This document shows, one piece after another, positions 16,801 to 64,000 of a stretch of DNA of 64,000 bases. The stretch is from Mobula hypostoma (taxonomy: Eukaryota): the NCBI RefSeq assembly GCF_963921235.1, contig NC_086097.1, forward strand, positions 109,866,001 to 109,930,000, in the 5' to 3' direction. The first letter of the stretch is position 1. Each line of letters begins with the position of its first letter. Below the pieces are notes generated by a model. The model ran no database searches. It was not told the DNA's origin and worked only from the letters and a program-made list of their open reading frames with translations. A program made the position numbers and the translations under genes.

Positions 16801-17270
16801 TTAACAACTCTGTAAAAGTAAGGAACATTTGGATCATTGGAGGAAATTCTGAGGGATGATATATATCACTTACAAAGCTGCAAATTAGTTAAGAACCATC
16901 ATCACAGAAATATCATGCCTAATAAATTACATTTTCTGATGTGCTAACAATGAGTTTAGCACATTTAATGTTGTCTACATGAATTTTAGAAAGGCTTTTG
17001 CTGAGAATGCTGTCTGCAAAGATATTCTATAGGTCCTGGTGGGTCTTCTGTTGCTTTGCCTGGCATTCATCAATTATTTAGTGTTAAATGTAGTGAGCAT
17101 GATAATAAATTGTAGAAGAGACTAATTAATAAATAGCCCAAGGTTTTGGAAAGATATCTTTGAAAAAGAAAAGAGGAACTGGATTTCGCTGTGGTATTGG
17201 ATGAGCAAATGCAACTGAGAAGGAAATTTTTTTAAATGGTGAAAAGGCTAATTGAATATGTGCATTTATA
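13850..17270 (+). mobile_element. Tandem cluster of very old CR1 RT/3'-end fragments
   Basis: Recurrent decayed motifs (LEKVQKRFTRMLPGL, QRRFTNM, HGFKVRG, FTQRIVDTWN). Confidence 0.75.
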
Positions 17271-17319
17271 GATGGTAGAAAAAGGGATATTAGTTGCCCA
17301 TGGGTGGCATCATGGAGGG

Positions 17320-19548
17320 TGAACCTACAGAAAGCATCCGGCACAAACAGGGTACCTGTCCGAGCACTAAAGACCTGTGCTGATCACCTGTCTGGAGTGT
17401 TTACTGATAGCTTTAACCTCTTGCTTCAGCAGTCTGAGGTAGCAAAATGCTTCAAGTGCCTTCTGTTATACCAGCGTCTAAGAAAAGCATGGTAACTTGC
17501 ATCAATGGCTATCTTCCAGTAAAACTTCCATCCACAGTGATGAAGTGCTTTGAGAAGTTGGTGAAGAAACATATCAACTCTGGCCTGAGAAGTGACTTAG
17601 ATCTGCTCCAATTTGCATACCAGCATAACAGGTCCACAGCAGATGCCATTTCATTGGCTCATCACTTAACCCTGGAACATCTGGACAAGATGCTTATATA
17701 AGGATGCATTGTATTGACTACAGCTTGGTATTCAATACTATCATCCCCTCAAAACTAATCAATAAGCTTCAAGACCTTGGTCTCAATGTGCAATTGGATC
17801 CTTGATTTCCTCACTTGCAGACCCCAGTCAGTTTGGATTGACATCTCCCCCACAATCTCTATCAGCTCCGCTGCGCCACAAGGCTGTGTGCTTAGCCCCC
17901 TGCTCTACATGCTTTACACATATAACTGTGAGGCTCTCAGCTCCAATGCCATAGTTAAGTTTGCTGAGGGCACCACTGTCATTGGCCAAATCAAAGCTGG
18001 TGACGAATCAGCAAATAGGACAGAGATTGAAAATCTGGCTGAGCGGTGTCACATCAACAACTTCTGACTTAATGTCAGCAAGATCAAGCAGCTGATTACT
18101 GGCTTCAGGTGGGAAAAACTGGAGGTCTATGAGTCAGTCCTTAATGGGGGATCAGAGGTGGAGAAGGTCAGCAACTTTACATTCCTCATTTCAGAGGACC
18201 TGTCCTGAGCCCAGCACATAGTGTAAGTACAATTGTGGAGAAAGCACGGCAGCACCTCTACTTCCATAAGTGTTTGTGGAGATTCGACATGACATCTAAA
18301 ACATTGACAAACTTCTATAGATATGTGATGCAGAGTATATTGACTGGCTACATCACAGCCTGGTATGGAAACACCGATACCCTTGAATGGAAAATCCCAC
18401 AAAAAATAGTGGATAAAGTCCTGTCTATCACAGGTAAATCCTTCCCCACCACTGAGCAATGTTGCAACAAAGCAGCATCTCACATCAAGGACTCCTGCAC
18501 CCGGCCATGCTCTCTTCTCACTGCTGCCATCAGGAAGAAGGTGCAGGAGCCTCAGGACATACAACACCAGGATTCAGGAACAGTTATTACCCCTCAACCA
18601 TCAAGCTCTTGAACCAGTGAGGATAACTTCACCCAACTTCACTTGTCCCATCACTGAACTGCTCCCATAACCCATGTACTCGCTTTCAAGCACTCTACAT
18701 CCAATGTTCTCTCTAATTTATAATGACCAGTGTGCACAAAAATCTTGTGCTGTGCAATTTTTTGCCCAGTGACAACAACATGTGCATGCTGAATTGTATG
18801 TGATTTCCTTGCTAAATGATGCTTTAAAAAGTCAAGTTTCTGAATATCACCACGCTTCTTCCCACTTGCAAATTCTCCAGTAACTTTTGCATTGCAAAAA
18901 TACGCATAGATAACACCAGTTTCTGTATTGTGCATAAATATTTTTCATAGCAGCATGTTCCTGATCTCATGAACTTTCAGTGTAGTAGTTTCTTTTGTTT
19001 CAATAAGCCATTCTGCAATTCTTTTGCGCTTCATGCCCTTTGCTTCTTTGGAATTCAACACAGTGAACCAATAATTTCTTCAATAAAAACAGTATAAATA
19101 AGCCACTTCTAAAATCTGCAGACAAATCATTGCAAACTCCACATTGTCAACGCCATTAGCATCAGAAGCTGAAAAAGGAAATGTGATTGTGTGCGATCAT
19201 GAAGTGTACTTAATATGCCAATGAGGTAGAGGGTGACAAACTTTTGTGTGCAGTTTAAATTCCTTTGTGTGTTAGATGCAAAAGATGTGTGCATGTGCAC
19301 ACCTTCGAGGCAACATTGTCTACATCTCATGTTGTTGATATTTATTTCTTCTTATTATTTGTTTTTTTCTTCTGTATTTGCACAATTTGTTGTCTTTTGC
19401 CCATTGGTTGTTGTTACGTTCTGCTGAGTGCAGCCTTGACTCTATTGTTTTTTGGATTTACTCTGTCTGCCCACAGGGAAATGAATCTCAGGGTAGTACA
19501 TGATGACATATATGCAATTTGATCATAAATTTACTTTGAACTTTGAAC
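17320..19548 (+). mobile_element. Degenerate Rex1/Babar LINE with a hAT element nested in its 3' UTR
   Basis: [57 protein letters not shown]; tail tttgaactttgaac at ~19535-19548. Confidence 0.85.
18702..19318 (-). mobile_element. Non-autonomous hAT transposon carrying a transposase N-terminal zinc-finger relic
   Basis: Exact 8-bp TSD TCTACATC (18694-18701 and 19319-19326). Imperfect TIRs CAATGTTCTCTCTAA / TTCGAGGCAACATTG. Minus-strand FCNAKVTGEFASGKK..KLDFLKHHLARKSH. Confidence 0.85.
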
Positions 19549-47049: not shown

Positions 47050-48960
47050 TAAGCTAATGTTACAGTGATCACGGGGGACTTCAATATGCAGGTAGACTGG
47101 GGGAAAATCAGCATGGTAGTGGACCTCAAAAAAGGAACTTGTGGAATGTCTATGAGATGGCTTTTCCAAGCCACTTCTGATAGAGCCCAAAATGGAACAG
47201 ACAATCTCAGATTTGGCGTGGTATGAGGCAGACTTGACAAGGGAGCTGTAGGTGAAGGATCCCTTGGGAAGCAGTGCCCATAATATTATAGGCATCTTGC
47301 TGTAGTTTGAGGGGGAGAAGCTGAAATCAGATGTAATGGCATTACAGTTGAGTAATGGTAAGGCAGACTCATGAGAAGGAGCTGGCCAAAGCTGAGTGCA
47401 AGGAGACATCAGAGCAGCAATGGCTGGAGTTTCTGGGAGCAATTCGGGACGAAAAGCAAACTTTTACCCCAAAGAAGAAGAAACACTCTAAGGCAGGGTT
47501 CCCAACCTTTTTAATGCCATTGACCCCCTTACCATTAATTGAGGGATCCATCGTCAACCCCACGTTGGGAACCACTGCTCTAAAGGGAGGATGAAGCAAC
47601 CACTGTTGACAAGGGAAGTTAGGGACAGTATAAAACAAAAGGGAGGCATAAAATATTGCAAAGATTAGTGTGAAACCAGAGAACTGGAAAGCCTTTAACA
47701 ACAGGACAACTGAAAAGGCATTGGGTGTGGGGCAGGGGTAGAGAAGACAAAATATGTGGGTAAACTAGCCATAACGTAAAAATATCAGAAGTTATTTTTT
47801 CAGAAACATGGGGTAAGAGAGAGTCAACAGTGGAACATGATGTTGGAGAAGTAGTAATGGACAAAAGTATTGGCAGACCAACTGAATAGATACTTTGTGT
47901 CAGTTCTGACAGTGATGTGCCAGAAATTCAAGAGAGTCGGGGCAGAGGTGAGTGTAGTGGCTGTTACTAAGGAGAAGGTGCTTCCAGAAGCTAAAAGCCC
48001 AGAAGGTAAATAAATCATCTGGATCAGATGGACCTCAACTTTTCTATTTATATGTTAATGATCTGGATGAAGGAACTGATGGCATTGTGGCCAAGTTTGC
48101 AGAGAATACAACAATAAGCAGAGGAACAGGTCATGTAGTCAAGGCAAGAAGTTTGTAGAAGGACTTGGAATGAGGGCAAAGAAATGGCAGGCAGAGTACA
48201 GCAGACAGAAGTGTGTGGTAGGAAGAATATAGGTTATTTTCTAAATGGGTGAGAATGCAGAAATCAGGGGTGCAAAGAATTCCCTCAATATTAACTTGCA
48301 GGGTGAGTTGGTAGTAAGGAAAGCAAAAGGAATATAATCATCAATTTTGAGAAGACTAGAGTATAAAAGCAATCATGGCATTATATGGCATCAGTCAGAC
48401 CACATTTGAAATATTGTGAGCAGTTTTGTGCTCCATATCCAGGAGAAGATGTACTGGCCTTGGAAACAGTCCAGGGTAGGACCACAAGAATGACTCTGGA
48501 ATGGAAAGTTTAACATATGATGAGTGTTTGATAGCACTGCGCCTGGTACTTGATGGAGATCATAAAGATGACTAGAGAATCTCATTGAACCTTACCAAGT
48601 ATTGAAAGACCTGGATAGAGTGGACCTGTAGAGGATACTTCCATTAGTAGAAAAGTCTAGGATCCAAGGGCATAGCCTCAGAATAAAAGAATGTCCCTTT
48701 AGAACTGAGAGAAGGAGGAATTTTATCACCCAAAGAGTGGTGAATCCGTGGAACTCATCGCCATAGAGAACTTTGGAGGCCAAGTCATGAGGTATATTCT
48801 AAAGTAGATATTGATAGATTCTTGAATGGTAAATCAGTTAAAAGTTGTGGGAAGAAGGCAGGAGAATGGAATTGGAAAGAAAATTAGCTATGATTGAATG
48901 AAGAAGCAGGCTCAGTGGGCCAAATAGCCTAATTCTTCTCCTATATCTCATGTTCTTATG
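47050..48960 (+). mobile_element. Old, internally deleted CR1 LINE
   Basis: GDFN (ggggacttcaatatg), cagaccaactgaatagatacttt, aagtttgcagag, CR1 3' UTR ending tctcctatatctcatgttcttatg. Confidence 0.8.
47494..47577. mobile_element. 84-bp hAT-Charlie MITE
   Basis: TIRs CAGGGTTCCCAAC / GTTGGGAACCACTG; TSD CTCTAAGG / CTCTAAAG. Confidence 0.85.
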
Positions 48961-49429
48961 TACAGTCAAAAGAGATTTAGTTTAATTCAACTTCATGTTC
49001 ATTACAGACATTGCGGACCCTAGGTGTTTGTTGCTGTACTATACTGTTCTATGTTCTAATGACAAACTTGTTATTATTCATACCATTTTTGTATTCCAGA
49101 TTATACAGATACCTAAATTCAATTCCCCAAATATAATTGAATTTGAAGGCATCTATGCTTTCAAGTGCAGTTCTGCGTAACTGGCATATTGTATTATATG
49201 CAATTCCTATCCAGTGACTGGCATCCGAACCAAGGCCTGTAATGCCCATACCAATCTCAGTCGATCTGTCTGAGAGCATCTCTCAATAATCACTCTCCTC
49301 CCCTATCCAGCAACAGAACTGCAAGAGCTGCATTTTCCTATTCGGACTTGCACTGTTTCTAAGGCCTAGAAATCACTCCTCCAAACCAAACAAATGCACA
49401 AAGTAACTTAATATGCAACTGAATCAGAC

Positions 49430-51910
49430 AGCACAGAGTCTGACAAAGGTGAGCTGTCATGCCTAGAACTGCATAGTGTGATTGAAGCAGATCACAAAAT
49501 CATATAGATCACAATAGATGTGCCTGGTGTAAAACAGAAAATGGAGCTGGATACAGGGTCAGCTTTGTCTATAATTTCAGAGTCTGACTACAACAGACTG
49601 CTTTCTAAGCTACCATTAGAAAAGACCTTGGTGATGCTAAAGACCTACACAGGCTAAAAAGTGTCTCCCAAGGACAAACTGAAAGTAAATGTGAAGTATG
49701 GAGGCCAAACACAGCAATTATAGCTTTATGTGTTGAAACGTGGAGGGCCAGCACTTTTCAGACATGAATGGTTGAGAAAAATCCAGCTAGACAATCAAAG
49801 CTCTCAATGTGTTATCAACAGGAAACTGCAGCCCAGATGGTAGCATTAACTAGAGAATGTCACAGCTACTTAATGCTAATGACAAGGTGTTTGAGAAGGG
49901 GATTGGTAAACTCAAAGGCAAGAAGGCCAGATTTGAACTGGATGAAGAGCAACACCAAGATTCCATAAGCACGTCCAGTGCCTTGTGCACTATGTCCTAA
50001 AGTGGATGCTGAACTTCAGAGTCTGGCATACCCTCCAAGGCTGGGTGGAGCAATTGGTCCACACCCATTGTCCTGGTGATCAAGAACAGGAAGCCAGAGC
50101 TGTTCACATCCGGGCGGACTTCGAAATGAGTTTCAACTCTGTGCTGCGTACTGTGCAGTATCCCCTGCCCCAAATAAAAGATATTTGCGTGCTTGGCAGT
50201 CAGGAGAGATTTTCAAAGATTTACTTGTCACAAGCCTATCTACAAATGGAGATTGAGGAGTCAAGCAGGAAGTTCCTCACAGTCAACACTCATAACAGAA
50301 TGTTCCAGTATAATCGTCTCATCTTTGGCATCAGATCAAACCCAGCAATCTGGCAAAAAGCAATGGACCAAGTACTCCAAGATATCCCAGGAAAACAATG
50401 CTACCTTAATGACATCATTGTGACCGGCAAGAATAATGAAGAGCACCTCTATAACCATGGTAAAGTGCTTCTCAGGCTGAGTGAGTATGGTCTGCATGCA
50501 AAGAGAGAAATGTGAGTTTTTCAGGAATGAAATCTCATGTTGGGGACACGTCATTCACAGGCCTGCTTACATAAGTCACAAGAGAAGGTTGTTTAGTTGC
50601 CACAGACATCCAAACCAGATTATGTGTCATAACTCAGGGCACACTTGGGTCTTGTTACCTACTACTCGGTTCCTCCCAAGCATAGCTACAGTGCTGCATA
50701 CATTGAATGCACAGTTACAGACAGGAGCAAAGTGGGAATGGTCAGAAAGATGTGAAAAAGCATTCATGGAAACAATGAGACAAATTACATCAGATGAACT
50801 GCCCACATATTATGACCCATCTCTTCCCATCAGACTGGCGTGCAATACATCCTCCAATGGTGTTGGAGCCATTTTGTCACACATTATGGAAGATGGATCC
50901 GAATGTCCGATTACATTTGCTTCAAGATCACTGGTGAGTGCAGAACACAGCTACACGCAGATTGACCAAGAGGCCCTTAGTTTAATATGGGGAATAAAGA
51001 AGTTCCACCACTACCTCTTCTCCAGTGACAGACCACCAGTTCCTTGTGTTCATTTTCAATCCCAGTGATGTCTGCTACCCAGTTGCAACATGGTACACTA
51101 GTCCTAGGAATAGAGTACACTCTTATGACATAGAGTTCAGGGGTACCAGACAACACAGCGGTGCTGATGGTTTGTCATGTTGGCAACTCAAGAAGATAAG
51201 TATTCATACTGTGACCCAGCAGAAGTGTTTCTCACAGCACTGGTGGACCAGTGGCCGGTAACAAATTCCGAAATACAAAGAGAAACAAGGAATGAACTGA
51301 CATTGTCAAAAGTCTATGACATCACCATGCAAAGATGGCCCGCTCATGGTAAGCCCATGTTTCCAGTGTTTTCTGTAAAACGAGACCAACTGTCTGTATG
51401 TCAAAGAACACTGACGTGTGGATCTCATGTTGTGGTTCCCTCTAACTGGCACACCAGAGTGTTAAAAAATCTGTACGAAGAACACTTGGGTACAGTCAAG
51501 ATGAAGAGCCTCACCTGGAGCTATGTGTGGTGGCCGGGAATAAATAGACAGATTGAAGACATGAACGAAAACTGTTCAGGATGCACTAAGTTCAAAATGC
51601 ACCCCCACAAGCACCGTTACACCCGTGGGAGTGGCATAGACTTCATGAAACTAGATCTACAGGAGAAGTGCAGAATAAACAGTTCAGCCAGTTGCCAAGT
51701 GAAGCAGCAAGGAGCTTTGAGATTGGACAGGAAGTCCTAACAATGATAGCCGAGAAGACAAGTACACAGTGTTCCCTGATGTACACAGTGAATGATGGAG
51801 ATCATACATGGGGACATTATGTGGACTAGATGCTGGATGCTAAGCCAAAGAACACACCTGAGTTGATGTATCCAACAAGATGGACACATTACAGCCATCG
51901 GACCAACCTC
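49430..51910 (+). mobile_element. Ty3/Gypsy pol relic, copy 2 (protease, RT, RNase H, integrase); same family as 26590-28530
   Basis: KMELDTGSALSIIS (protease, ~49540), QYPLPQIKDI, CYLNDIIVTG, LACNTSSNGVGAILSH, EHLGTVKMKSL..YVWWPG..CSGC. Confidence 0.9.
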
Positions 51911-51914
51911 TCAG

Positions 51915-52900
51915 TGATGATCATCAGGTGCCTGTGTGCTTGGAGGACTTTCCCAAGACAGCTGTGATAACCCCATTTGGCCTTTTTGAGTTTCTGAGCA
52001 TGCCGCTTGGGCTAAAATATACAGCACAAACTTCCCAACGGCTGCTGGACTCTGTATTAAAAGATTTACATTGCTTCCCTGGATGACATACTTGTTGCCG
52101 GTGCATCCAAATCCAAACACGTATCTCATCTCCACACACTTTTCATGCCAACACGGGTTGATTATTAACCCAGCTAAATGCAAGTTTGGGTTGTCAACCA
52201 TTGGCTTTCAGCCATCACACCTCCACAGAAGGTGCAGAGCCCCTCCAATCAAAAGTAGCCGATATTATGGATTTGCACTACTCAAAAACTACAGGAGTTC
52301 TGAGGTATGGTGAATTTCTATCATCTCTTCATTTTGCGAGCTGCTGAACTTGTGCTCCCCAAATAGTGTGCCCAAAGGCAATACTCCTCGTCAAATGCTT
52401 GACTGGTCAGCCACATGGCCAGAGCATTTGATGATATCAAATTAACTTTTTCTAACATTACCCTACTGGGGCACCCTCTCCCAATGCACCCAGAGCCATT
52501 ACACTGACGCCTCAGGCTATGCTGTGGGCGCTGTGCACAAATGGTTGGTTGGAAGCGTGTGGCAGCCGCTCGCCTACTTCAGTCAGCAGCTCCGGCACCC
52601 CAAAAGGAACTACAGCACATTTGACAGTAAGCCATTTTCATTTTCTTCTGGGGAGGGAGGTCACCATTTCACAACACTCATTGACCACAAACCCTCATGC
52701 ACACAATGGCCAAAATATCAGACCCTTGGTCTGCACAGCAGCATTGCCACCTGACCTACATATCAGAGTTCAGAAATGATATATGACATATAAAGGGGGA
52801 AAATAATGCTGTGGCCAATTGCCTCTCATGGCCAACCCCTACGTATCAGGGTTGACTATGCTGGCATGGCAGTCAACCAAGTTATTGACCCAGAGGTCCA
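51915..52900 (+). mobile_element. Third Gypsy family pol relic
   Basis: PKTAVITPFGLFEFLSMPLGLK, TDASGYAVGA, WQPLAYFSQQL, DHKP. Confidence 0.8.
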
Positions 52901-53340: not shown

Positions 53341-55149
53341 AATACCAGCTTGTGTGTGATAGCTATATCCTATGACTGAATTGCAAAATTTCCTTTTCCA
53401 GTACTGGTCCTATGTTACATTCCCCGTGTTCTTGATCATCGTTGGGTCAATTTAATTGAAAATCTTGTAAACACAAACTTAAAACGATCTTAAACCATAT
53501 TAAGTAACCAATCAAGGTAAAAGCAAATCATAGACTTTTGTACAGAGCCTCAGTGCATATCACCACGATACCATGGTGTACCTCCCTAGTAACAGTAACC
53601 AGACCAGTGGAAGGCAATTAGGAAACTAGGTAGGCTGTTAAGAGTGGACACAAAGACTTCCAGGCCTAGACTACTCAGATACAGACTTTCATCTCACTGC
53701 GAGCAGCTGCACTTGTGCAGGTTTAAGGATTCAAGCTGAACTCACATTGGCCCACCTAGAACGTACAATATGATACCACTGGGTTTGCTGACCGCCGAGT
53801 TCTAAACTCAAGTGAAGAACTTAAGCCCTACCCAATACACTGCAGATAGCTATGGGTAACTTCTCTAAAGGGATGTTATACTATATCCACTTACTCCTCA
53901 AATGCTAAATCACTTCCCTGTTTATCCATCACAGAGAGCTTACCTGCCAATACCCACTATTTGAGCAGAGGGTGCTCCCCTTCCTCCCAAGGAGGAGATG
54001 CTTCCACCTACAAAATAGTTTAAATACAGTTTTTTTTATTTTTAGTGATACACATTTAATTCCAAGCAATATTCTTGAAGCATGTTTAAACCTCACAGAG
54101 GTTTTCTATCTTATAAAAGATTTACAAATTACAAAGGATTTCCAAAACACAGGTACAATTCCGTAAAGCTAAAAAGACATGCCAATGAGTTGCAGAAAAA
54201 CAAATTGTCCATCACAGATATTGAAGATAGAGGAATGGATCTAGTCACCCTATTTTTCTGTTATTCTCCTTGCTGTTCTGTGACCATTTCTACCATGGCT
54301 GATAATTGGGTGACTTCAGAAACATGTGATATTTCTTCAGACACCGTTTTACAGAAACAGTCCAGAAACTTCTGGAGAGAGAGTTCCCAGATTCCAACAA
54401 TTAATGCTGTGAAGCTGACTCTGAGCGCACGACCTTCCAACTATCAACATATCAGCTTTTTGATGTGCTATTGATAGTATCAACCTGGTCTGCAAGCTTC
54501 CTTGAATGAATTAACTTAGCTAACGTTGCCTGGTTTGAAATAGGCTAATTAACATAACCCCATTATCTTACACTGCATCTATTGAGCAGGCAGCCTAGAT
54601 GCTGCTGGCCCAGCATCCTGTCCTCTATAGACAGTCCTGTTTGTTTGTAAAGCTGCCCTTTTAACTTCAGACTGATTATTGCTTTCCATTTACATTAAGA
54701 ACTCAAGACTGGCTCCCATTAATGGCAAGAAGTTGAACAAAGAATATTGGTTGGAATTTTAACTTCCTCAAAAACAACACTTTGATCTCTACAAGTGTGA
54801 GTTGCTAAGTTAGAAGGCTGAGCACGGCAAAAAAAAAGAAGGTCTCCCAGTCCTAGGCAGTGAATATCCTTCACACCCCACTCTTTCTAAGCAAAGGTTT
54901 CTAACACAATTTCTTCCTACAGAAATATGTTTTGCATTTATCACATATCTTTCCTTAAAACTGGCCATGCATTTCTGTCTTCAAATATGCAACATCAATT
55001 GACCAATCAGATTTACTCCCAGAGTTATTTCCTCTATAAACCTTCAAAAGTGGATGAGCCTCTGATGTCAGTGTGTCTGAACAACTTTTGTCATCAGAAA
55101 TTTCTCCCTTCCAAATGAACTGAATCATCAGTGCTATTGTGAGAGTGAG

Positions 55150-57560
55150 CACGTTTAAGGCATGGCGGTATAGACAGTTTTACGTTTATGAAAATATCAT
55201 GAAAATTGTTCAGGGCTAAATTATTTTTTCCTCACCTATTGATAATGCTATGCAACTGTATACATAGCAATAATTGAAGGCTTGTCTGAATATGTAATAT
55301 TGTCCATTTAGAGATATGCTTTTAGTGCAACCACAACATTTAGTATTATCAATTGGTCCCCAACAGTACATTTGTTATAGTTTTGTTTACCCCATTTTTC
55401 AACTTGTTAGTCGAAGCCTATCTGAAATATAATTGGATTTGTAAGGACACTATTAGGTCAGAATTAATTTCGTTGTAAGTTATTATTCGCAGCACAGCTC
55501 AAACTATTCCTGACTGTTTGATAATGGGAAATTTGGGTCTCTAGAAGCTGATTAGACTTAACAGTCTCAGTTGACCAGAGAGGACAATATTTTCATTTTA
55601 TCATACATTCTGCTCAGTGCATCTTTCCATCTTATCTCCCCATGCAAAAAACAAATCCAGGGCTTCAGTGTACCATTTAGACCATAATCCAGAAATTCAG
55701 AAAATTGTCCTGTTACCTTGACATTTAACAATAGAGTGGAATAGTGACCATATTTGGAGAAATGGAAATGTCTATAGTCTTTGTATTAAGTATGTTCATA
55801 AACTATACCTGTTGGCCATAAAGGGAAAGTGCAATGAGATATCCATCAAATATAGAAGAGTCTTCAGTAAAAAATGGTTTATGACAATGTTCTAGTTTAA
55901 CAGTTTCAATGTCTTCCCATGAGTGTGACCATTCAAGATTCAAGATTCATTTGTTATCAAAGAATGTATAAATTATATAACCTTGAGATTTGCCTGCTTA
56001 CAGGCAGCCAAAAGCATGAAACCTGAAAGAACCCAATTAAAAGAAAAAAGAATTAAAAAGATAAAAATAAAATAAAATCAATGCGCAAGAGAAAAAAAGA
56101 CAAGTTATGCAAACAACTGAAGTGAACAACAGCATTCTGAACCTAAATTGAGTCCTCAGATCCGAACCCTGGAACAGCCAGGCCCAAAGCCTCGCTTATC
56201 AGTTCATCATGTTAGCAGGCACAGAGCACAGCAGCCGGGCAGTCTCCATAGCCTCTGTGCTATGGAGATGACCATCGCAGAGAATGAGAGAAACCAGCTC
56301 TCATCCCGACTGACACCATGTAGTTTCAGTCTATCTGGGCCGGTGTTTAAATTGACCCAACGACAGAACAGTGAGAGGCTTCAATGGTCTGGAAAGAGGA
56401 GTGAAGACTGCGGAGGATGAGCAAAATTGGCTCACATGTTTAAATTGTCTAAACAGTGTAAAGTACCGGGCAGTGGGCCTGGACCACCTCGCCCAGTGAC
56501 TCACTCCAGGCCTGGATTCCATCACCCAGCCTGAAGCCGCTCTCAAGCTCTTCAGATCAGCTCAACCCCCAACCTCACTTCTGGACCAGTTCAATCAGCA
56601 TCAGAACTTCTTTGCTCGGGCCTTGACTTCTTCTTTCAATGCTCAGAGTGATACAGCCTTGCTCCCGGGCCAGCTGCTGGTCCAGCTGTACAGGCATCGG
56701 AACCCCAACTGCAACGATTCTGTAACAAACCATCTTGACTCATCCTCTGAACTTGCCTCACCATCGCTCATCCCTTCACTATTTGCGGCAATAGTTTAAC
56801 ATAACTTTCCACAGAAAAGCTATTTTTAGTGATGTTTTTAGTTGGGTTTCTTTTCTTTTCGACCACCAGAAGCTGCAGCACACATTTGGATGGTAGCGTC
56901 ATCTTATTCAGAAGCCGCCATTAACAATATCTATTGGGGGGATCTATAGCAAGGAATTCCTCTATTAGTTTACCTTCAAAATCTGGGGTGGAATTTTTTA
57001 CATTTGTTGGAGTGTCATTAATAATTTTCAGAAGTGATTTTTTTTTGCCCTCCCATGTATAGATGTTCATTTCGTCAGCAATATAGTCAGTGACTGTTTA
57101 AGTGGACAGGAACAGTCACTTTGCCAGAGGCAAGGTTGTATAAGTTCAGTGTATAAGTTCACATATGACCAAAGGGCAAGGGGTATTTTGTAATATTTAA
57201 AGTAGAATTATCATTGCTCGAAGATCCCCTTAATCTAATATTCTCTGAGTCATTACATTTTAAAGGTGGCCAAGCCAGAAGAGACAATTTCCACAGCAAA
57301 TGCAACTTCATCCGCTAAAAGACAATTGGCAAGTAAGACAGCATTGAACAATATTACTGTAGGCATGAGTATTAAAGTAAAATACAACAAAAGAAACATT
57401 TCTTCCTGGAGTTTAAGTCTTGTTTACTCTGAAAACAAAAGTGCATTCTGGATGCATGATCCCTGGTTAATCGACCCATGAGATCTTCCTTAAATGAACA
57501 AAATTTTTATATTTCTTTTTAGATCTAATCATGTGGTTTTGTCTTTACAATACATCCACT
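55150..57560 (-). pseudogene. env: Putative degraded retroviral env downstream of the foamy-like integrase (interrupted at 55932-56905)
   Basis: Lies directly 3' of the integrase. Hydrophobic MFLLLYFTLILMPTVILFNAVLLANCLLA (~57400-57315), then frames with N-X-S/T sequons (NDS, NST, NIT, NDT, NST, NGT) and Cys-rich segments (CWGPIDNTKCCGC). Multiple stops and frameshifts; no firm alignment recognised. Confidence 0.4.
55932..56905 (-). mobile_element. Non-autonomous retroelement with (TTGAATC)n tail
   Basis: ttcaagattcaagattcatttgttatcaaagaatgtataaattatataaccttgagatt end, as at 9523. Confidence 0.6.
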
Positions 57561-57609
57561 CCCCCTTCCCATCATGGTGTAGGTGTTACGTACTCATTCT
57601 GTGGTGGGG

Positions 57610-58030
57610 GGGGGGATAAGTCCTGCTGGGGCAGGTTTGATGTTATCTATGTAGATGGTTTAACTTATAGTATTATTTCCCCTCCTGGTCTCGGTTACTA
57701 CAGTTCTATTGTTGATAACCTGGGTAATGAGACAAGGGGGACTCCATCTAGCATGGAAAAAAGGATCAGAATTATGTTTATGTAATTTTTTTCCTTGGAC
57801 ACAGTTCCCTTTTTGTGTACTCCTATTTTCACAATTGGCATATTGTTTACAGACAATTGCACTTCAGGGACAAACATAGCCTACTTTTGGCCTCTAGAGT
57901 AAACCAGTTTTGCCAAGCCTTGCTTAATCTCCTGATTCCCTCATTCCACTGTGCCACTTGATTGGGGGTGGAATGGAGTGCTTTTCTGCACTTGTATACC
58001 TATTTGTTCACACGGGGCCTGAAAGCCTTT
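57610..58030 (-). pseudogene. pol: Foamy-virus-like integrase, C-terminal half (core E motif plus CTD)
   Basis: Manual translation: KGFQAPCEQIGIQVQKSTPFHPQSSGTVE*GNQEIKQGLAKLVYSRGQK*AMFVPEVQLSVNNMP, then after a deletion/frameshift GNCVQG...ARWSPPCLITQVINNRTVVTETRRGNNTIS*TIYIDNIKPA. Absent from the ORF track because of stops. Confidence 0.82.
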
Positions 58031-58356
58031 ACAGGGGTCGGTGTTGGGACCTCTGCTTTTTAGATGTATCTCAGTGATTGGACTACGGTATTAATGGATT
58101 TGTGGCTAAATTTGCCAATGATACAAAGATAGGTGGAGGAGCGGGTAGTGTTGAGGAAACAGAGAGCCTGCAAAGAGACTGAGGCAGTTTAGGGGAATGG
58201 GCAAAGAAGTGACAAATGAAATACAATGTGGGAAAGTGTATGATCATGCACTTTGCTGAAAGAAATAAACAGACAGACTATTATTTAGATGGGGAGAGAA
58301 TTCAAAATGCAGGGATGCAAAGGGATATGGGAGTCCTTGTGCAAGACACCCTAAAG

Positions 58357-59575
58357 CAGGGGTCCCCAACCTTTTTTGCACCACAGACCGATTTATTATT
58401 GACAATATTCTTGCGGACCGGCCGACCGGGGTGGGGGGGGCGGTGGGTAGGGTTGCCAACAGACAAGAGTAGCAGTCAAATAAGTTGTGTTTACCCCGAG
58501 AAAGACTACCATGACCATGAAGCCTTGGGCGGGCACCTGTGTGCGCATGCGTGACATGTGCATCCATGTACGTGCCGATTTTTGGCGGTTCTTTTCGGCG
58601 GGGGGGGGGTGCTAATCGCAACCGGAATATAGGTGATAAGTGGCAATACACTTAATTTCATTTCTAAAAGGGTTTATGTAATGAATTTAATATTAAACAC
58701 ACAGCGCATATTTTCCTCGTATGAATATAGTGATAAGTCAATTATCAGGGGAGGACAGGGGAGCTTGAAGTAAGTGTTGAATGAACTTCCAGTAGAAGTG
58801 GTAGAAGCAGGTTTGATATTATCATTTAAAGAAAAATTGGATAGGTATATGGACAGGAACGGAATGGAGGGTTATGGGCTAAGTGCAGGTTGGTGGGTCG
58901 AGGTGAGAGTAGCGTTCGGCACGGACTAGAAGGGCAGAGGTGGCCTGTTTCTGTGCTGTATTTGTTATATGGTTATATAAGTCACTTATAAGTCAATGGC
59001 GTCATAACATTTTAAGTAATGTTTGGATATTAAACACACAGCACATATGTTCCCCGTATGAACATATAAAATCATTGCAACACATCAATATCGCTGAATC
59101 AGTGGGAGCCCTGGGCTTGTTTCCCTGCAACAAGACGGTGCCATCGAGGGGTGATGGGAGACAGCGATACTCGAAGGGGGTTCGTTATGTCCAGTCTATT
59201 CTGCAATTTAGTTTTCGTTGCATTCATTGCAGAGATATGTTGGAAATGGAAGCAACGTTTTCAGTGCTTTTGTGGCTATCTCAGGATATTTAGCCTTGAC
59301 TTTGAGATCCGGAATGCCGGCAGAGATGTTATGTCAAACATACTTTTCAGCCCGCCGTCATTTGCAAGCTCAAGGAGTTGAACACCTTCCCGCGCTGACA
59401 TGGATGACGCGTGGGTAATGACCTCGCGTGCGTTCAAGCTCAACAGTGCGCGTGACAGGGAATGGGGAAAGGTGCAGCTGACTCATATCGCCAAATCATA
59501 TAGTTTCCTCGCGGCCCGGTAGCACATACTTTCCGGCCCGGTATCGGTCCGCAGCCCGGTGATTGGGGACTGCTG
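58357..59575. mobile_element. hAT-Charlie non-autonomous element (MER1/Charlie3-like) containing a CR1 3' fragment (~58775-58978)
   Basis: TIRs CAGGGGTCCCCAAC / ATTGGGGACTGCTG; TSD CCCTAAAG / TCCTAAAG. Confidence 0.88.
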
Positions 59576-59751
59576 TCCTAAAGGTTAACCTTCAGGCTGA
59601 GTTGGTTGTGAAGAAGGTGAATGCAAGTTTGGCATTCATTTCTAGAGGTATAGAATATAAGCAAGGATGTGATGTTGAAGCTCTGTAAGGCACTTGTGAG
59701 ACCACACTTGGAGTATTGTGTGCAGTTTTGGGCTCCTTATATTAGAAAAAA

Positions 59752-62070
59752 CTAGACAACAGGGTGACCCATTGAGGCACCCTTTGAGAGAAAGGTAGTG
59801 CTGTCTGATGTGACCAGAATGAACAGTAAATTTCCCTGAATGCTATTGCTATCGCTTTGCTTTGGAAATTAAAGAAGAAAAGCTCAGTTTATTAAAGAAG
59901 AAAGACACGTAGCAAAACAAATATAGCTCCTCCTCGTTTAACGAAGGACACTTTTGATGACAACATTTCTGGTTGATCTGCCACCCTTCAAGAATACTCT
60001 AACATTTTTTTTTCCCTGGTTTAAAGCCACATACATCTGACCATGCTGGAATACCGGTTTCTTCAGATAAATCAATACGTTCTCCATGGTTTGGCCTTGC
60101 GCCTTATGTATAGTCATAGCAAAGCATGACTGTATTGGGAACTGGCTCCGCCGAAGAGGGACATCTTCCCCTTCTGATAAATTGAGAGTAATTCTTGGGA
60201 TCATGACAATGTCATCTTTGAACGCACCAGTGTTTATCTTTGCTGCAATGAGATTGTCGTGCAGTTCTTCCACCATCATTCGCGTTCCATTGCAAAGCCT
60301 TGGTGAATACAAGTTCCTCATTGAAATGATGGGAGATCCCCTCTTCAATTCCAGTTTATGTGGTGGCATTTCAGAGAGTTCGATCAAATCAAGGAATTCT
60401 GTTGGAAAATGAGTGGTGTTAGCTCCTTCACTTACGGCATTGAAGGAACAGTATTCTTTCATGATTCCAGGGAAGCATCTAATGCATGTGAAGTTTATTT
60501 TTCGCATCATTTCATTGAGAGGAACCGAGATAGAATTCCTCAAGAGCAGTTCTGCAGGATTGTCGAATGTCTGCTAGCTGAAATCAATACATTCTTCCAT
60601 AGTTTTTGCTGGCAGAACCATATCTTCCAGTAATTCGATTTCATCATTTTCATTTTTCTCAATCTTATCTTCTCCAACATCCAATAAGAACTCAGAATAT
60701 TGTCCTTCTCCCTCACTCAATCGCATGATTCTCTTCATTTGAAACTTGATGAAGCTTCTCCATAGGTAGGGTTTTTTTATGCATGAATTCTCCACATCAG
60801 CATCATTTCCTTATTTCACAACTGCTAGAAGCTGACAGAAATCGCCACAGCAAATGGTTAAAATACCCGCAAAAGCCTCATTCTTGCCGCATACATCATG
60901 AAGAATCTGGCCCACAGCTTCAAAGCTCTCCCTCCTAATCATGGGGCATTCATCCCAGACAATAAGCCTCGCATTTTGGAGTAAATTTGCAGTAGTGGTA
61001 TTTTTATCGATGTTACAAAGGGCACATTCATTGACTTTGAGGAGTATCTTGAATTTTGAATGCGCTGTCCTACCATGGGGCATCAATGTTGCTGCAATAG
61101 CAGATGATGCTACAGCGATAGCAGCACTTCCATCTCCCCTAACTTTAGTGAGGATCAAATTGATGATAAATGTCTTGCCTGTTCCTCCTGGTGCATCAAT
61201 GAAAATCATTGAAGAGCGATTCCTTTCCAAGCAGTCGCACACATATTTATGTACTTCCCTTTGCTCATTATTCAACAGGGGCTCCTTCTGTGAAACAAAT
61301 TCCTGCTGTTTGTCTCTGTTGTATTGCAGTTCATGCAATAATTCCAGAATGCCAGCACTTTGAGTAATTGTACTGTTCTTGGTGTTGGCAAGTTATACTC
61401 TTCAAGTGATTTGCCCAAGTTCTCAAGTTTCTCTTGGAAATACAGGAGAGCTTGTCCATGATGTCTCTCAATTAGGCTGGTCATATTTTTGTACCTTAAT
61501 GCTGGATAAAAGATACAAAGCAGTAACACCAAAGCCTCCAGGATGCTGATTTCTCTTGATGATGTGGTTGGCACTCTCCCAAATGGACGTGATATCGTCA
61601 CTGCTGTCCTTTGACTGCAGCAAAGGGTTTTATGGGTGTTTTGAAGTACCTCATTACAATAAGATTTAATTATCTCTTATTGATTGGTCACAGTTTGATC
61701 TGTCTCAATCCTGCACATGCTGATGGTGATTAGCAGAATGTGACCGCTCGAAATAGAGCTGCCCTGCCCTTTTGCTCCAGTAGGTGTCGCTGCTGTGAGC
61801 ATCATGAGGTGCTGCTAAGGCTGGCCATGCGCATGCGATGTGGTGTCACGTCACGGTTTCCATGAAAGCTGCAATCGGGTGATGACAAGTGAGCAATTTT
61901 ATACGAATATAACCCTGACCTATACGAATATAACCCTGACCTTTGCATGCATTCTGTAAGTTAGCGCATTTTAAGTCCATTTAGTCAAAAAAAGTGCTGC
62001 TGTTTGGGCTAATTTGAGGGCACAAACAGACAAACAGATAAACAGAATGAGAATTTTAGTAATGTATAGA
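59752..62070 (-). mobile_element. Helitron, internally deleted, both termini intact
   Basis: Minus strand starts TCTATACATTACTAAAA with (CTGT)-like repeats and ends AGGGTG-cctcaatgggt-CACCCT-gttgtCTAG (subterminal hairpin plus CTAG). Inserted between A and T with no TSD. Confidence 0.92.
59938..61470 (-). pseudogene. Helitron PIF1-family helicase, disrupted
   Basis: IDAPGGTGKT (Walker A), GRTAHS, IVWDECPM (Walker B), CGDFCQL, RLCNGTR, QFPI, AMTIHKAQGQT, HGQMYVAL; split over several ORFs. Confidence 0.93.
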
Positions 62071-62580
62071 TATGCTGACATTGGAGAGGGTTCAGAGAAG
62101 ATTCACAAGAATGAATCCAGGAATGAAAGGGCTACCGTATGAGGAACATCTGGCAGCTCTTGGGCTGTATTCCCTGGAGTTCAGGAGAATGAGGGGGGAT
62201 CTCATAGAAACATTCTGAATGTTAAAAGGCCTGATCAGATTAGATATGGCAAAGTTATTTCCCATGGTAGGGGATCCTAGGCCAAGAGGGCACAACTTCA
62301 GGATTGAAGTACATCCTTTTAGAACTGAGATGAGGAGAAATTACTTTAGTCAGAGGATGGTAAATCTGTGGAATTTGCTGCCACAAGCAGCTCTGGAGGC
62401 CAAGTCATTGGGTGTATTTAAGGTAGAGATAGATAGGTTCTTGATTAGCCAGGGCACCAAAGGGTATGGGATGAAAGCAGAGGAGTGGGAATGACTGGAA
62501 GAATTGGATCAGCCCATGACTGAATGGCGGAGCAGACTCAATGGGCCGAATGCTCCTATATCTTATGGTCTTATGGTCTA

Positions 62581-63020
62581 TTGAAGGAAAACCGTCAGTT
62601 GACATTATTGCAGCTGGGGATGCCAGCATGTGAAATTATAGAGCTTTGGAGTGTAGTGATGCTTGTGGCCTCACTACAAGAATTTGTGGGAACTAACCAT
62701 GTATATTCCGTACAAAGATCAGCTATCACAAGAATATACTTATTAGGTTTTCAGTAAGATGGATTGCTTTGGGATGCCAAAATAGACCTATATAATCAAC
62801 CTCCCACACCTGCATTGGTGCAGTTGGTTTTATTTGTCTGAGAGGAGATGGTCTTGTGACTGTTCCCTTATGATAGGTCAGACATTCTTTACAATTTGCA
62901 ATGAGTTGCTTCCAGTCACTCAACTTCTAAGGCCACCAGTCTAACATTGATAATTTTGCATGCCTGTTCCCACCAGGATTATGTTGGAATTCTCAGTGGG
63001 CATCTTGAAACAATTATGTG
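62581..63020 (-). pseudogene. pol: Foamy-virus-like integrase, N-terminal half (HHCC finger plus first part of the core)
   Basis: Manual translation: LFQDAH*EFQHNPGGNRHAKLSMLDWWP*KLSDWKQLIANCKECLTYHKGTVTRPSPLRQIKPTAPMQVWEVDYIG, then after frameshifts NKYILVIADLCTEYTWLVPTNSCSEATSITTLQSSIISHAGIP and IMSTDG. Confidence 0.82.
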
Positions 63021-63049
63021 CACTCCCAGCTTTGTGCTCCTAACTCTCT

Positions 63050-64000
63050 CTATAGAGAAGCCATGTATATGCAGAGATGAGCATCTTCCTGAAGTCCACA
63101 ATACTCTCTTTGGTCTTGTCCATGTTGAAACTTAAGTTGTTGAGCTCTCATCATTCTACCAGCCCTCTACCTCCTCTTTGTGTGTCATCTCGTTGTCGCT
63201 GTTCATGAGACCAACCACTGTTATGTCAGCAGTGAACTTGATGACTCAGTCTGAACTGGATCTAGCAGTGCAGTCATGTGTCAGCAGCATGAACAGCGGT
63301 GGGCGGAGCACGCATCTTGGGGAGCGCCAGTGCCCAGCGTGATGGAGCTAGAGATGTTTCTGCCAACACGGACTGACCTGGGCCTTTCTGTCAAGAAGTC
63401 TAGGATCCAGTTACAAAGAGAGGTGTTGAAACTGTTTATCTACCAGCTTCTGAGGTATGGTCATATTGAATGCTGAGCTGAAGGCAATAAACAAGTCTTG
63501 ACATATAAGGCACCATTTTCCAGGTGGGACAGGATTGAGTGCAGAGGCTACAACATCATTAGTGGACCAACTTGAGCGATAAGTGAACTGGAAATGGTCC
63601 AATGTAGCAGGAAAATTCTATCCCTGACCAGCCGTTCAAAGCACTTCATCATTGTTGAGGTCAGTGCCACTGGATGGTGTCACTGAAACAGGTTTCTGTT
63701 GCTCTCCTGGGTGTCAGGATGATGGTGGCCACCTTGAAGCGTGAGTGGACAGTGGACTGTTCCAGAGAGATATTGAAGATGTTTCTTAGATTCTCCGTTA
63801 ACTGAGCTGTACAGTCCCTCTGCACCCGACCAGGTGTGATGTCAAATCCCGCAGCATTATATCAGTTGATCTTGGCTGGGGTCTTCCTCACATCAACTGC
63901 GACCCGACAGAGTGCCCACTCCTCAGAAGGAAGGGGAGCCTTTCTCGTCGGCACATTGTTCTGTACATCAAAATAAGCATAAGACACATTCTGCCTATCA
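63050..64000 (-). mobile_element. Degenerate Rex1/Babar RT fragment running off the window
   Basis: MDHFQFTYRS..STNDVV; antisense of GAPQ and ..DFRK (cttcctgaagtccacaat). Confidence 0.8.

Follow-up and report, generated by a model that had tools for sequence, protein, structure and literature searches.

A LINE-split integrase from a probable ancient foamy-virus-like provirus in the genome of Mobula hypostoma

Results

Two minus-strand segments form a decayed integrase of foamy-virus type

Two stretches of Mobula hypostoma DNA flanking a LINE insertion read, on the minus strand, like parts of an integrase, which raises the question of whether they were once a single gene and, if so, to which kind of element it belonged. 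In the window (the whole 64,000-nucleotide stretch analyzed), the two halves lie at 63010-62582 and 58032-57612, separated by a 4,549-bp insertion (58033-62581). The motifs listed in the first-pass annotation are all on the minus strand: H-x4-H (62998-62981, interrupted by an in-frame stop), WWP (62938-62930), CKEC (62893-62882), and DYIG (62797-62786), HPQSSGTVE (57970-57944), and IDNIKP (57650-57633), whose coordinates had been given exactly. We conclude, with a probability of roughly 0.9, that the locus represents the integrase end of an ancient, now dead foamy-virus-like (spumaretrovirus-related) provirus on the minus strand that was later split by a LINE. The integrase features are as follows.

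62582..63010, minus strand: integrase zinc-binding N-terminal domain and N-terminal half of the catalytic core, with H-x4-H, CKEC, DYIG, and YILVIAD..TWLVPT in its translations (matching residues 76-135 and 144-182 of the integrase of prototype foamy virus, PFV)
57810..58032, minus strand: C-terminal half of the catalytic core, with the DDE glutamate motif HPQSSGTVE (PFV 202-269, E 1e-10)
57612..57818, minus strand: integrase C-terminal domain, foamy-type SH3 (SH3_11, PF18103; PFV 336-375)

Four pieces of the integrase were searched one by one against the PDB sequences. PFV integrase was the best or sole match to all four, in PFV order: piece P0001 to residues 76-135 (E 4.2e-4), the middle piece to residues 144-182 (E 0.01-0.02), P0002 to residues 202-269 (E 1e-10, the best HIV integrase reaching 8.4e-4), and P0003 to residues 336-375 (E 1.6e-3), where it was the only integrase matched in the PDB. 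The C-terminal piece also matched Pfam SH3_11 with 27.3 bits (E 4.2e-6; cut-off 25), a family that passed its cut-off in four paralogues as well; together with the sole PFV match, this bears out the earlier view that the C-terminal domain points to spumaretroviruses over Gypsy. The Pfam rve core model matched none of the pieces at E ≤ 1, and Integrase_H2C2 remained under its cut-off at the locus (16.9 vs 25.5 bits). A paralogue read through with X matched PFV integrase at 1.7e-25 (92.7 bits), Ty3 at 6.5e-7 (31.4 bits), and HIV integrase at 3.5e-4, so that PFV integrase was the top structural-database match for the locus pieces and for the paralogue alike.

The copy is heavily decayed. The upper half (62582..63010) carries three stops and at least one frameshift and has lost the second catalytic Asp, the C-terminal half of the core carries two in-frame stops, and the C-terminal domain one. 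Read in the ancestral frame, the counterpart of the second catalytic Asp codon encodes Asn, with a stop after it; the "STDG" motif that had been read there is a shifted-frame coincidence. Paralogue coordinates and PFV numbering further indicate a deletion: the stretch linking the catalytic core to the C-terminal domain is approximately 145-165 bp shorter here than in every paralogue compared. The integrase copy is dead, and the locus no longer has a coding function.

The two halves are contiguous in paralogues

In every one of the 11 paralogous loci (L002-L012), the upper and lower halves occur together and in the same order, and in the uninterrupted paralogues L003, L006, and L008, the DNA matching them is just 3-4 nt apart. 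That the halves are instead pieces of two different elements that met the LINE by chance is a thought invited by the dense repeat mosaic of the region, but this spacing speaks against it, as do the equal divergence of both halves from the paralogues (71-84% DNA identity overall, 71-77% for 63010-62582 and 77-84% for the core C-terminal half) and PFV integrase coordinates that continue without overlap, from 144-182 to 202-269. We consider it so improbable as to be negligible. The halves did not match unrelated families, and the proposal that the two segments are one integrase holds.

The insertion itself had been described as one CR1 element at 58031-62580. Its bounds agree with ours to within 2 nt (58033-62581); its content proved more complex, a 5′-truncated CR1-like LINE tail broken into three colinear pieces by two further nested inserts. 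A second LINE fragment lies on the other side of the upper half.

58033..58356, plus strand: CR1-like LINE 3′ fragment, piece 1, 5′-truncated and antisense to the provirus (80% to L014 4039-4365)
58357..59575, strand not assigned: 1.22-kb interspersed repeat lying within the LINE (86% over 1,248 columns to L026 5873-7106)
59577..59752, plus strand: CR1-like LINE, piece 2 (colinear with L014 4359-4516)
59753..62067, minus strand: 2.3-kb Helitron-like fragment, likewise within the LINE, with PIF1-family helicase ORFs
62069..62581, plus strand: CR1-like LINE, piece 3, to the 3′ end with short tandem repeats (colinear with L014 4518-5039)
63011..64000, minus strand: LINE reverse-transcriptase fragment in place of the proviral RNase H (continuing to position 87 of L013, the sequence beyond the window end)

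In the host DNA examined, piece 1 has at least five other copies and piece 3 up to 21 matching copies. Tandem 8-mers, a hallmark of CR1, can be read from the sequence at the LINE's 3′ terminus. The helicase ORFs of the Helitron-like fragment (60811-61392 and 59938-60573) gave Pfam matches to PIF1 (E 2.9e-46) and Pif1_2B_dom (E 2.1e-11), and no Pfam Rep domain was found in the ORF upstream of them. The second LINE fragment was recognized by tblastn with a LINE RT query (L014 9369-9998), which matched 63718-63317 (E 7.5e-19); proviral family homology ends at ext 64088 and restarts at 63010, and RNase H is kept in paralogues cB, cE, and cF.

Phylogenetic placement with foamy viruses

A careful integrase tree with 54 rows grouped the locus and eight paralogues in one clade (support 99/95), and this host clade, together with a catshark protein and the foamy-like Pol P0006, was sister to ten foamy-virus Pols (support 100/99). 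A quick tree of the RT, which lies just past the window, recovered the same foamy/foamy-like clade (SH-aLRT 100). In both trees, all 22-23 Gypsy references and the class-I ERVs fell elsewhere; the reference sets were without class II, ERV-L, lokiretrovirus, and named fish foamy-like ERV sequences. Placement within Gypsy had been named beforehand as the outcome that would count against a foamy origin; the integrase tree instead groups the locus with foamy viruses, and the RT agrees.

Among 1.84 billion representatives, the core C-terminal piece had 23 matches, the nearest being GCB74397.1 (P0004; 49%), a hypothetical protein of Scyliorhinus torazame, and P0006 (45%), a Logan-derived protein of 1,687 aa; in the integrase tree, these two are successive sisters to the host family. 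P0006 has RVP, RVT_1, RNase_H, H2C2, rve, and SH3_11 domains, with approximately 520 residues ahead of the protease vs approximately 90 in the host family, and the part of P0004 downstream of the integrase has no counterpart in the host copies. Feline foamy virus Pol ranked eighth (8.8e-6), after a fern protein and Gypsy/Copia-type proteins. Taken on its own, the short catalytic-core piece cannot tell these groups apart.

It is on this piece, whose matches to Gypsy/Copia-type proteins are about as good as those to foamy Pol, and on the weak match to Integrase_H2C2, a model common to Gypsy, that an origin from a Ty3/Gypsy retrotransposon, a GIN1-like domesticated gene, or a Ginger DNA transposon could be argued. 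Such an origin is very improbable given the position of the Gypsy references in both trees, the lead of PFV over Ty3 in the paralogue's bit scores, and a C-terminal domain of the foamy SH3_11 type rather than a chromodomain or p58_C module. The presence of protease, RT, and LTRs around the integrase excludes Ginger, and the many stops exclude an intact domesticated gene.

The remainder of the provirus

The first-pass annotation had seen no LTR in the window; one is present, as the 3′ LTR at 53769-54875. Beyond position 64000, RT and protease lie 88-1,917 bp past the window end, including a protease-like ORF with a DTGA motif (L013 1597-1917), and the 5′ LTR lies approximately 3.1 kb past it. 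Downstream of the integrase we distinguish the following.

56939..57611, minus strand: proximal post-integrase internal region (66-74% colinear homology in six copies, directly after the integrase)
55937..56938, strand not assigned: approximately 1 kb of additional sequence that copies cA and cH lack at this point
54932..55936, minus strand: distal post-integrase internal region, possible env remnant (72-78% colinear to cA, cC, cE, and cH)
54876..54888, minus strand: purine-rich, polypurine-tract-like stretch abutting the 3′ LTR, read from the sequence
53769..54875, minus strand: 3′ LTR of approximately 1.1 kb (75% over 981 aligned columns to ext 67106-66155, i.e., L013 3106-2155)

The 3′ LTR and the matching repeat beyond the window are direct repeats; the 3′ LTR starts with TG and ends with CA, as defined by comparison among copies. 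The repeat lies downstream of the integrase in five of eight other copies and just upstream of the protease in 9 of 12 protease loci, where the family pol directly follows the LTR with no gag between LTR/PBS and pol. Genome-wide, the repeat is present in many copies: a first look gave 4,815 candidates, and the 40 that were scored yielded 49 matches. The position of 54876..54888 fits a putative polypurine tract. Feline foamy virus Pol (P0011) matched ext 65081-64351 with residues 254-500 and 58024-57830 with residues 947-1011, showing that the locus is colinear with a true foamy-virus Pol.

One PBS is common to six foamy-virus genomes (L049-L054). Copies of the host family have it 2 nt past the end of the LTR, L038 and L046 differing at 2 of 15 positions and L028 and L044 at 3 of 15; at three mismatches or fewer, it had only six matches in the 341 kb of host DNA examined, four of them at family LTR ends. 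At the window locus, the PBS and the 5′ LTR end are missing, and no target-site duplication was recognizable.

No Pfam family was found in the ORFs of the proximal post-integrase region. The flanks of 55937..56938 are contiguous in cA (12758/12795) and cH (12387/12436), and this segment had no informative match to other host DNA examined. In the distal region, the paralogues gave weak foamy-virus Env profile matches: ten at E < 1, every one of them in sense orientation within the post-integrase region (best antisense E 2.5), with four copies matching the same profile positions, approximately 340-418. The window copy itself had no match to this profile. Foamy Gag and Env Pfam models had no match genome-wide in a strict first look, which does not show absence, and foamy-virus Gag, Env, and accessory ORFs used as tblastn queries had no match under E 1e-3.

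These results bear on a further reading, in which a retrovirus-like lineage outside our reference set (ERV-L-like class III or lokiretrovirus-like) merely attaches to the foamy viruses. Foamy-type gag and env were not clearly found, and ERV-L, lokiretrovirus, class II, and the named fish foamy-like ERVs were absent from the comparisons. On the other side stand the family PBS, which is that of the six foamy-virus genomes, whereas ERV-L is named for tRNA-Leu, the passing of the SH3_11 cut-off at the locus and in four paralogues, and the strand, location, and shared positions of the Env profile matches. In favor of this reading, PMC7947760 describes published integrase trees as unstable, with ray-finned-fish foamy-like integrases not grouping with tetrapod ones; against it, the abstract of that paper does not list cartilaginous fishes for lokiretroviruses. 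Overall, we judge this reading unlikely.

Family size and age

The integrase had 88 matches at ≥43% identity among 150 scored, nearly all with stops, a lower bound since 150 of 2,781 candidates were scored; the protease had 132 matches in the genome. The decayed copies in this genome, the locus among them, number at least about a hundred. The LTR-LTR K2P distance is 0.245 over 916 sites, and the integrase-core K2P among seven copies has a median of 0.25, i.e., the family is approximately 25% diverged. Because the LTR pair (75% identical) is no closer than unrelated LTR copies are to the window LTR (71-81%), the LTR divergence cannot prove a single integration.

Discussion

The PDB and Pfam matches, the integrase and RT trees, and the continuity of the paralogues uphold the original proposal of an ancient endogenous foamy-like provirus. 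The whole element would run from the 5′ LTR beyond the window to the 3′ LTR at 53769-54875 and would contain protease, RT, tether, then integrase, followed by approximately 1.7 kb of family-specific sequence. By analogy with known families, its DNA copy was presumably reverse-transcribed from a tRNA-Lys-type primer site and inserted into the germline by the DDE integrase of the locus itself or of a sister copy. A single ancient burst may have produced some hundred or more copies along with numerous solo LTRs, after which this copy would have decayed neutrally. Later, a CR1-like LINE, 5′-truncated and antisense, probably entered the integrase catalytic core and was in turn struck by the 1.2-kb repeat and the Helitron-like PIF1 fragment, while another LINE fragment appears to have taken the place of RNase H.

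Exogenous foamy viruses (PFV 3L2Q, Feline foamy virus, and L049-L054) likewise have the order protease-RT-tether-RNase H-integrase; the family shares with them an integrase made of a zinc-binding domain, a DDE core, and an SH3_11-type C-terminal domain (45% identity to Feline foamy virus Pol in a 65-residue HSP over the core C-terminal half), a PBS of the same type, and a pol that starts with its own ATG. Unlike foamy viruses, the family lacks gag between LTR/PBS and pol, has the protease motif DTGA and at best a faint env remnant, and consists of decayed copies approximately 25% divergent from one another. By description, it also resembles the mammalian class III ERV-L/MaLR elements, which are old, high-copy, and foamy-related, with abundant solo LTRs and defective derivatives. 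ERV-L has a tRNA-Leu PBS, hence its name, and a gag; the family differs in its foamy-virus PBS and in having no gag upstream of pol.

Foamy-like ERVs are already known from Chondrichthyes, namely the CmiFLERVs of the chimaera Callorhinchus milii (Aiewsakun & Katzourakis 2017, PMC5512871) and ERV-Spuma.0-Sca of the catshark Scyliorhinus canicula (PMC10699275). In the literature searched, the 12-species supplement of PMC10699275 aside, we found no foamy-like ERV from rays or skates. As described in PMC5512871 and PMC10699275, the chimaera and catshark elements have nothing detectable beyond pol, and our family resembles them, by description, in being endogenous, defined by pol, and clearly recognizable only there. 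In contrast to those accounts, the family described here has defined LTRs, a defined PBS, and a defined junction between LTR and pol.

An integrase gene split by nested insertions

The first-pass annotation had proposed that two minus-strand segments of the window are the halves of one integrase gene, separated by a single CR1 insertion of about 4.5 kb. To follow this up, we compared the locus with its paralogues, and the upper and lower pieces were found together and in the same order in all 11 paralogous loci fetched. Paralogue DNA aligned to 63010-62582 and 58032-57810, with 3-4 nt between the two blocks in three loci (L003, L006, and L008). Because the paralogue blocks are only 3-4 nt apart, the inserted DNA can be delimited as 58033-62581 (4,549 bp), and the two halves are one gene, contiguous in the paralogues. 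Three colinear plus-strand pieces of the insertion match one LINE copy elsewhere in the host (L014 4039-5039), which upholds a single CR1-like LINE as the interrupting element and adds two inserts nested within it.

Components of the insertion in the integrase gene
58033-58356, plus strand: LINE tail piece, colinear with L014 4039-5039
59577-59752, plus strand: LINE tail piece, colinear with L014 4039-5039
62069-62581, plus strand: LINE tail piece, colinear with L014 4039-5039
58357-59575: nested repeat of 1.22 kb, 86% identical to a second host locus, L026
59753-62067: nested 2.3-kb piece whose minus strand carries PIF1-helicase ORFs (Pfam PIF1, 2.9e-46)

The LINE insert is a 5′-truncated tail that ends in short tandem repeats (8-mers at 62560-62581, read from the sequence at its 3′ end); many copies of it exist, and Pfam searches of the ORFs of the tail gave no match. 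The PIF1-family helicase ORFs at 59938-60573 and 60811-61392 (minus strand) are open over 211 and 193 codons. They look far better preserved than the provirus, which suggests a Helitron-like insertion of younger age; a Rep domain was not found with the PIF1-helicase piece.

Identity and decay of the integrase

All the integrase motifs quoted in the first-pass annotation were recovered by three-frame translation of the minus strand, with DYIG at 62797-62786, HPQSSGTVE at 57970-57944, and IDNIKP at 57650-57633, exactly as it had placed them. The integrase pieces were then read with stops as X, and each was searched singly against all PDB sequences. Prototype foamy virus (PFV) integrase was the best or sole PDB match for each of the four pieces, with aligned PFV residues that rise from the first piece to the last.

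PDB matches of the integrase pieces of the window copy
Zinc-finger/DYIG piece: PFV residues 76-135; best PFV integrase E value 4.2e-4
YILVIAD piece: PFV residues 144-182; best PFV integrase E value 0.01-0.02
HPQSSG piece: PFV residues 202-269; best PFV integrase E value 1e-10 (best HIV integrase 8.4e-4)
C-terminal piece: PFV residues 336-375; best PFV integrase E value 1.6e-3

The C-terminal piece also scored above the curated cut-off of the Pfam model SH3_11, the retroviral integrase C-terminal SH3 domain (27.3 versus 25 bits), so the assignment of this domain to the foamy type stands; among 81 candidates scored, SH3_11 exceeded the cut-off at four paralogous places. The Pfam rve core model matched none of the integrase pieces of the locus, and Integrase_H2C2 scored under its cut-off on them. 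Taken alone, the core piece is not discriminating: foamy Pol ranked 8th of its 23 protein matches. In a search with this piece against longer homologous proteins, none of 44 candidates was significant, and in a search against viral contigs, none of 94 pattern matches was confirmed.

Some details of the earlier reading had to be revised. The STDG motif is a shifted-frame reading, as the corresponding Asp-Gln-Gly motif of the paralogues shares its frame with YILVIAD...TWLVPT. In this ancestral frame, the window copy has Asn at the codon of the second catalytic Asp, and the next codon but one is a stop; as read from the nucleotide sequence, the second catalytic Asp is lost. In the stretch that links the catalytic core to the C-terminal domain, the window copy is also about 145-165 bp shorter than every paralogue examined. 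Its integrase is broken by six in-frame stops and has at least one frameshift.

The remainder of the provirus

To find the rest of the element, we fetched 20 kb past the window end (locus L013; extended coordinates, ext, are 64000 plus the L013 position). Feline foamy virus Pol (P0011) aligned colinearly over both parts of the locus, with RT residues 254-347 at ext 65081-64797, RT residues 358-500 at ext 64785-64351, and integrase residues 947-1011 at window 58024-57830. A protease-like ORF with a DTGA motif lies at L013 1597-1917 (minus strand). This ORF is open over 107 codons and the rest of pol is full of stops; it has 132 genomic matches, many of which span only its first ~55 residues. 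Pfam searches of the protease, RT, and tether ORFs past the window and of the LINE-like ORFs gave only chance-level matches at E ≤ 1. RNase H was found in three of the other genomic copies of the family (cB, cE, and cF) and is absent from the window provirus, where ext 64088 to 63010 (1.08 kb) is taken up by a LINE RT fragment (tblastn, 7.5e-19).

The provirus is flanked by a direct repeat whose two copies, at ext 67106-66155 and window 54864-53921, share 75% identity over 981 columns. With 4,815 candidates genome-wide, the repeat is high-copy, and its best copies are not beside integrase, which had made us doubt early on that the 944-bp repeat was an LTR. The doubt was reversed by linkage to both ends of the element: the repeat lies 3′ of integrase in five of eight other copies, and in nine of 12 protease-bearing loci a gap of 153-240 bp separates its end from the protease ORF query that follows downstream. 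Since it is attached to both the integrase side and the protease side of copies, we identify the repeat as the family LTR, and its many further copies would most simply be solo LTRs. By comparison with other copies, the 3′ LTR spans 53769-54875 and is preceded by a purine-rich tract; the earlier statement that no LTR is visible in the window is therefore withdrawn. The 5′ LTR lacks its last ~150 bp, and the primer-binding site (PBS) and leader are absent at this locus. No target-site duplication was recognizable at the inferred provirus ends, and ARAGORN found no tRNA gene in the window. A stretch of about 1 kb (55937-56938) interrupts the post-integrase region. At the matching junction, another genomic copy of the family, cC, carries a LINE-like insert of about 1.08 kb that is unrelated to this stretch; the site may be an insertion hotspot.

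The two LTRs differ by a K2P distance of 0.245 (916 sites), which falls to 0.229 when CpG columns are left out; for the integrase core, the median K2P distance across seven copies is 0.25. Such equal divergence within the element and between copies fits one old burst. If neutral change is assumed to run at 0.5-2.5e-9 per site per year, the age would be roughly 50-250 million years. Of the words sampled from the junction stretch, 27-32% occurred in four sequencing runs of a second organism and at most 12% in those of six further organisms, figures that are not taken as evidence for a shared orthologous insertion.

Phylogenetic placement

To place the locus, we built trees with ten foamy-virus Pols, P0006 (a Logan-derived foamy-like polyprotein of 1,687 aa with RVP, RVT_1, RNase_H, H2C2, rve, and SH3_11 domains), the Scyliorhinus torazame protein GCB74397.1 (P0004), seven MLVIN_C-type (class I) ERV proteins, 22-23 Gypsy proteins, and four others. 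Breaks in the host copies were bridged with X. In the quick RT tree (50 rows), the locus and eight paralogues grouped with an SH-aLRT support of 99, joined P0006 (86), and then joined the ten foamy-virus Pols (100). Foamy viruses and the host family together fell within a retroviral clade (99), with the class-I ERVs outside the foamy clade and the 22 Gypsy references outside the retroviral clade. The careful integrase tree, built from 366 columns and 54 rows after the long Gypsy row P0114 had been set aside, gave the topology (foamy viruses 100/98, (P0006, (P0004, host family of nine rows 99/95) 96/86) 99/92) 100/99, and a quick tree of all 55 rows agreed with it. An integrase phylogeny had been proposed as a check in the first-pass annotation; the one built here groups the locus with foamy-virus integrases (100/99), with Gypsy outside. 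The sampling behind both the RT and integrase trees is confined to the groups listed above, leaving aside ERV-L, class II, and lokiretrovirus sequences as well as named foamy-like ERVs of fishes. Rival retroviral lineages are treated in PMC9040795 and PMC12440569, and PMC7947760 warns that integrase trees are unstable.

A Ty3/Gypsy (Metaviridae) identity is at odds with both trees, in which the Gypsy references lie outside the clade, and with the pairwise scores of a paralogue read through in one frame (P0027), which gave 92.7 bits with PFV integrase (residues 25-356), 31.4 with Ty3, and 22.4 with HIV integrase. A Ginger transposon, for which terminal inverted repeats and no RT are expected, was rejected on domain content, as the integrase at this locus has RT, protease, and LTRs attached. 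PMC5512871 gives grouping of the RT with foamy viruses in phylogeny as a criterion for foamy-like ERVs. The locus shows this grouping, along with integrase grouping and a PFV-type SH3 domain; gag upstream of pol, also expected of a foamy-like ERV, is lacking in the family.

Structure of the family

The host genome searched comprises 3.48 Gb in 200 contigs, in which the window is C1:109866001-109930000. For the core piece, 150 matches were scored of 2,781 candidates, and at least 88 had at least 43% identity, nearly all with stops. One 18-nt PBS is common to six foamy-virus genomes (L049-L054), directly after the LTR, and the PBS of foamy viruses is described in PMC5512871 as being of the tRNA-Lys1,2 type. 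At the family level only, a 15-mer 2 nt after the LTR end differs from the foamy PBS by two mismatches in two copies (L038 and L046; 13/15 positions identical) and by three in two others (L028 and L044; 12/15). Across 341 kb of host DNA, there were six matches with up to three mismatches, four at family LTR ends and two in another LTR family. In eight loci, the ATG of the protease-pol ORF lies about 95 nt past the PBS, a spacing of LTR, PBS, and ATG that leaves no room for gag between LTR and pol. Pfam Gag_spuma_N had no match in the genome, and searches with foamy Gag, by profile and by tblastn, gave none.

For env, the post-integrase regions of nine copies were translated (54 frame translations) and searched with a profile of six foamy-virus Env proteins. 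Ten matches had E < 1, on the sense strand only (best 0.001, 0.012, 0.017, and 0.15); the best antisense E value was 2.5. Four copies were matched at Env positions ~340-418, and in cA and cH the matches are colinear. This profile matched nothing in the window copy, Pfam Foamy_virus_ENV had no match genome-wide under a strict first look, the best tblastn match to env had an E value of 0.045, and Pfam searches of nine post-integrase ORFs gave chance-level matches only. Nothing in the family copies corresponds to the portion of P0004 that follows integrase. The family may carry faint traces of env.

With a probability of about two in five, we consider that the family is a gag-less foamy-like element (LTR, foamy-type PBS, ~95-nt leader, pol with its own ATG, env remnant, and LTR), present in a ray-type genome as at least 100 copies and thousands of solo LTRs and bearing an SH3_11 integrase of the tetrapod-foamy type. 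Such an element would presumably have moved with the aid of a helper virus or have originated from a subgenomic RNA.

Other retroelements

Further retroelements lie in the window and elsewhere in the genome. A second LTR-element family occupies 47497-47585 (minus strand) and 49383-51924 of the window. At 47574, a sequence with two of 15 mismatches to the foamy PBS follows a different LTR end, common to position 5332 of locus L025. The plus strand has weak RT-like (50282-50500) and integrase-like (51528-51593) matches, and 49383-51924 contains colinear pieces 76-89% identical to DNA downstream of copy cD. MLVIN_C, the C-terminal domain of gamma/epsilon-type ERV integrases, is abundant in the genome, as all 150 matches scored, of 1,235 candidates, were above the cut-off. 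Many of them are stop-free, and one (G000:C1:109572000-109572152), about 294 kb ahead of the window, falls in an open frame of 550 codons. Copy cF is followed, 4-6 kb further downstream, by a second element with a Pol (cF 15872-18079; G000:C58, ~60.671-60.673 Mb). This Pol is 22-28% identical to foamy-virus and P0006 Pols over long HSPs, and the element is probably of another retroelement family.

Comparison with known foamy-like elements

The locus is a real and correctly interpreted viral fossil, non-functional by itself, and foamy-like ERVs as a kind are already known. Its history holds a lesson for annotation, as a retroviral gene split by nested LINE and Helitron insertions can escape ORF callers. 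Foamy-related retroviruses across jawed vertebrates are a subject of PMC6001957 (see also PMC4422223). Full-text literature searches turned up no report of a foamy-like ERV from rays or skates, a result to which the supplementary species list of PMC10699275 may be relevant. Foamy-like fossils of cartilaginous fishes support a marine, Palaeozoic origin of retroviruses and have so far been described as pol fragments only; the locus and its family add an LTR-delimited example, a foamy-type PBS, a defined LTR-to-pol junction, possible faint env traces, and a rough age signal. The absence of gag is a testable oddity, and the gag-less structure is the sole part that might be of wider interest. For the foamy-like ERVs of Callorhinchus milii, PMC5512871 states that 'no genes other than pol' were detected, and a gag-less design, if true, would give a structural reason for the restriction of published foamy-like ERVs from Chondrichthyes to pol. 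According to PMC7947760, foamy-like integrases of ray-finned fishes do not group with those of tetrapods and coelacanths; if our reading of the family is true, viruses of cartilaginous fishes already had the tetrapod-foamy-type integrase, which was then not a gain of the tetrapod/coelacanth line.
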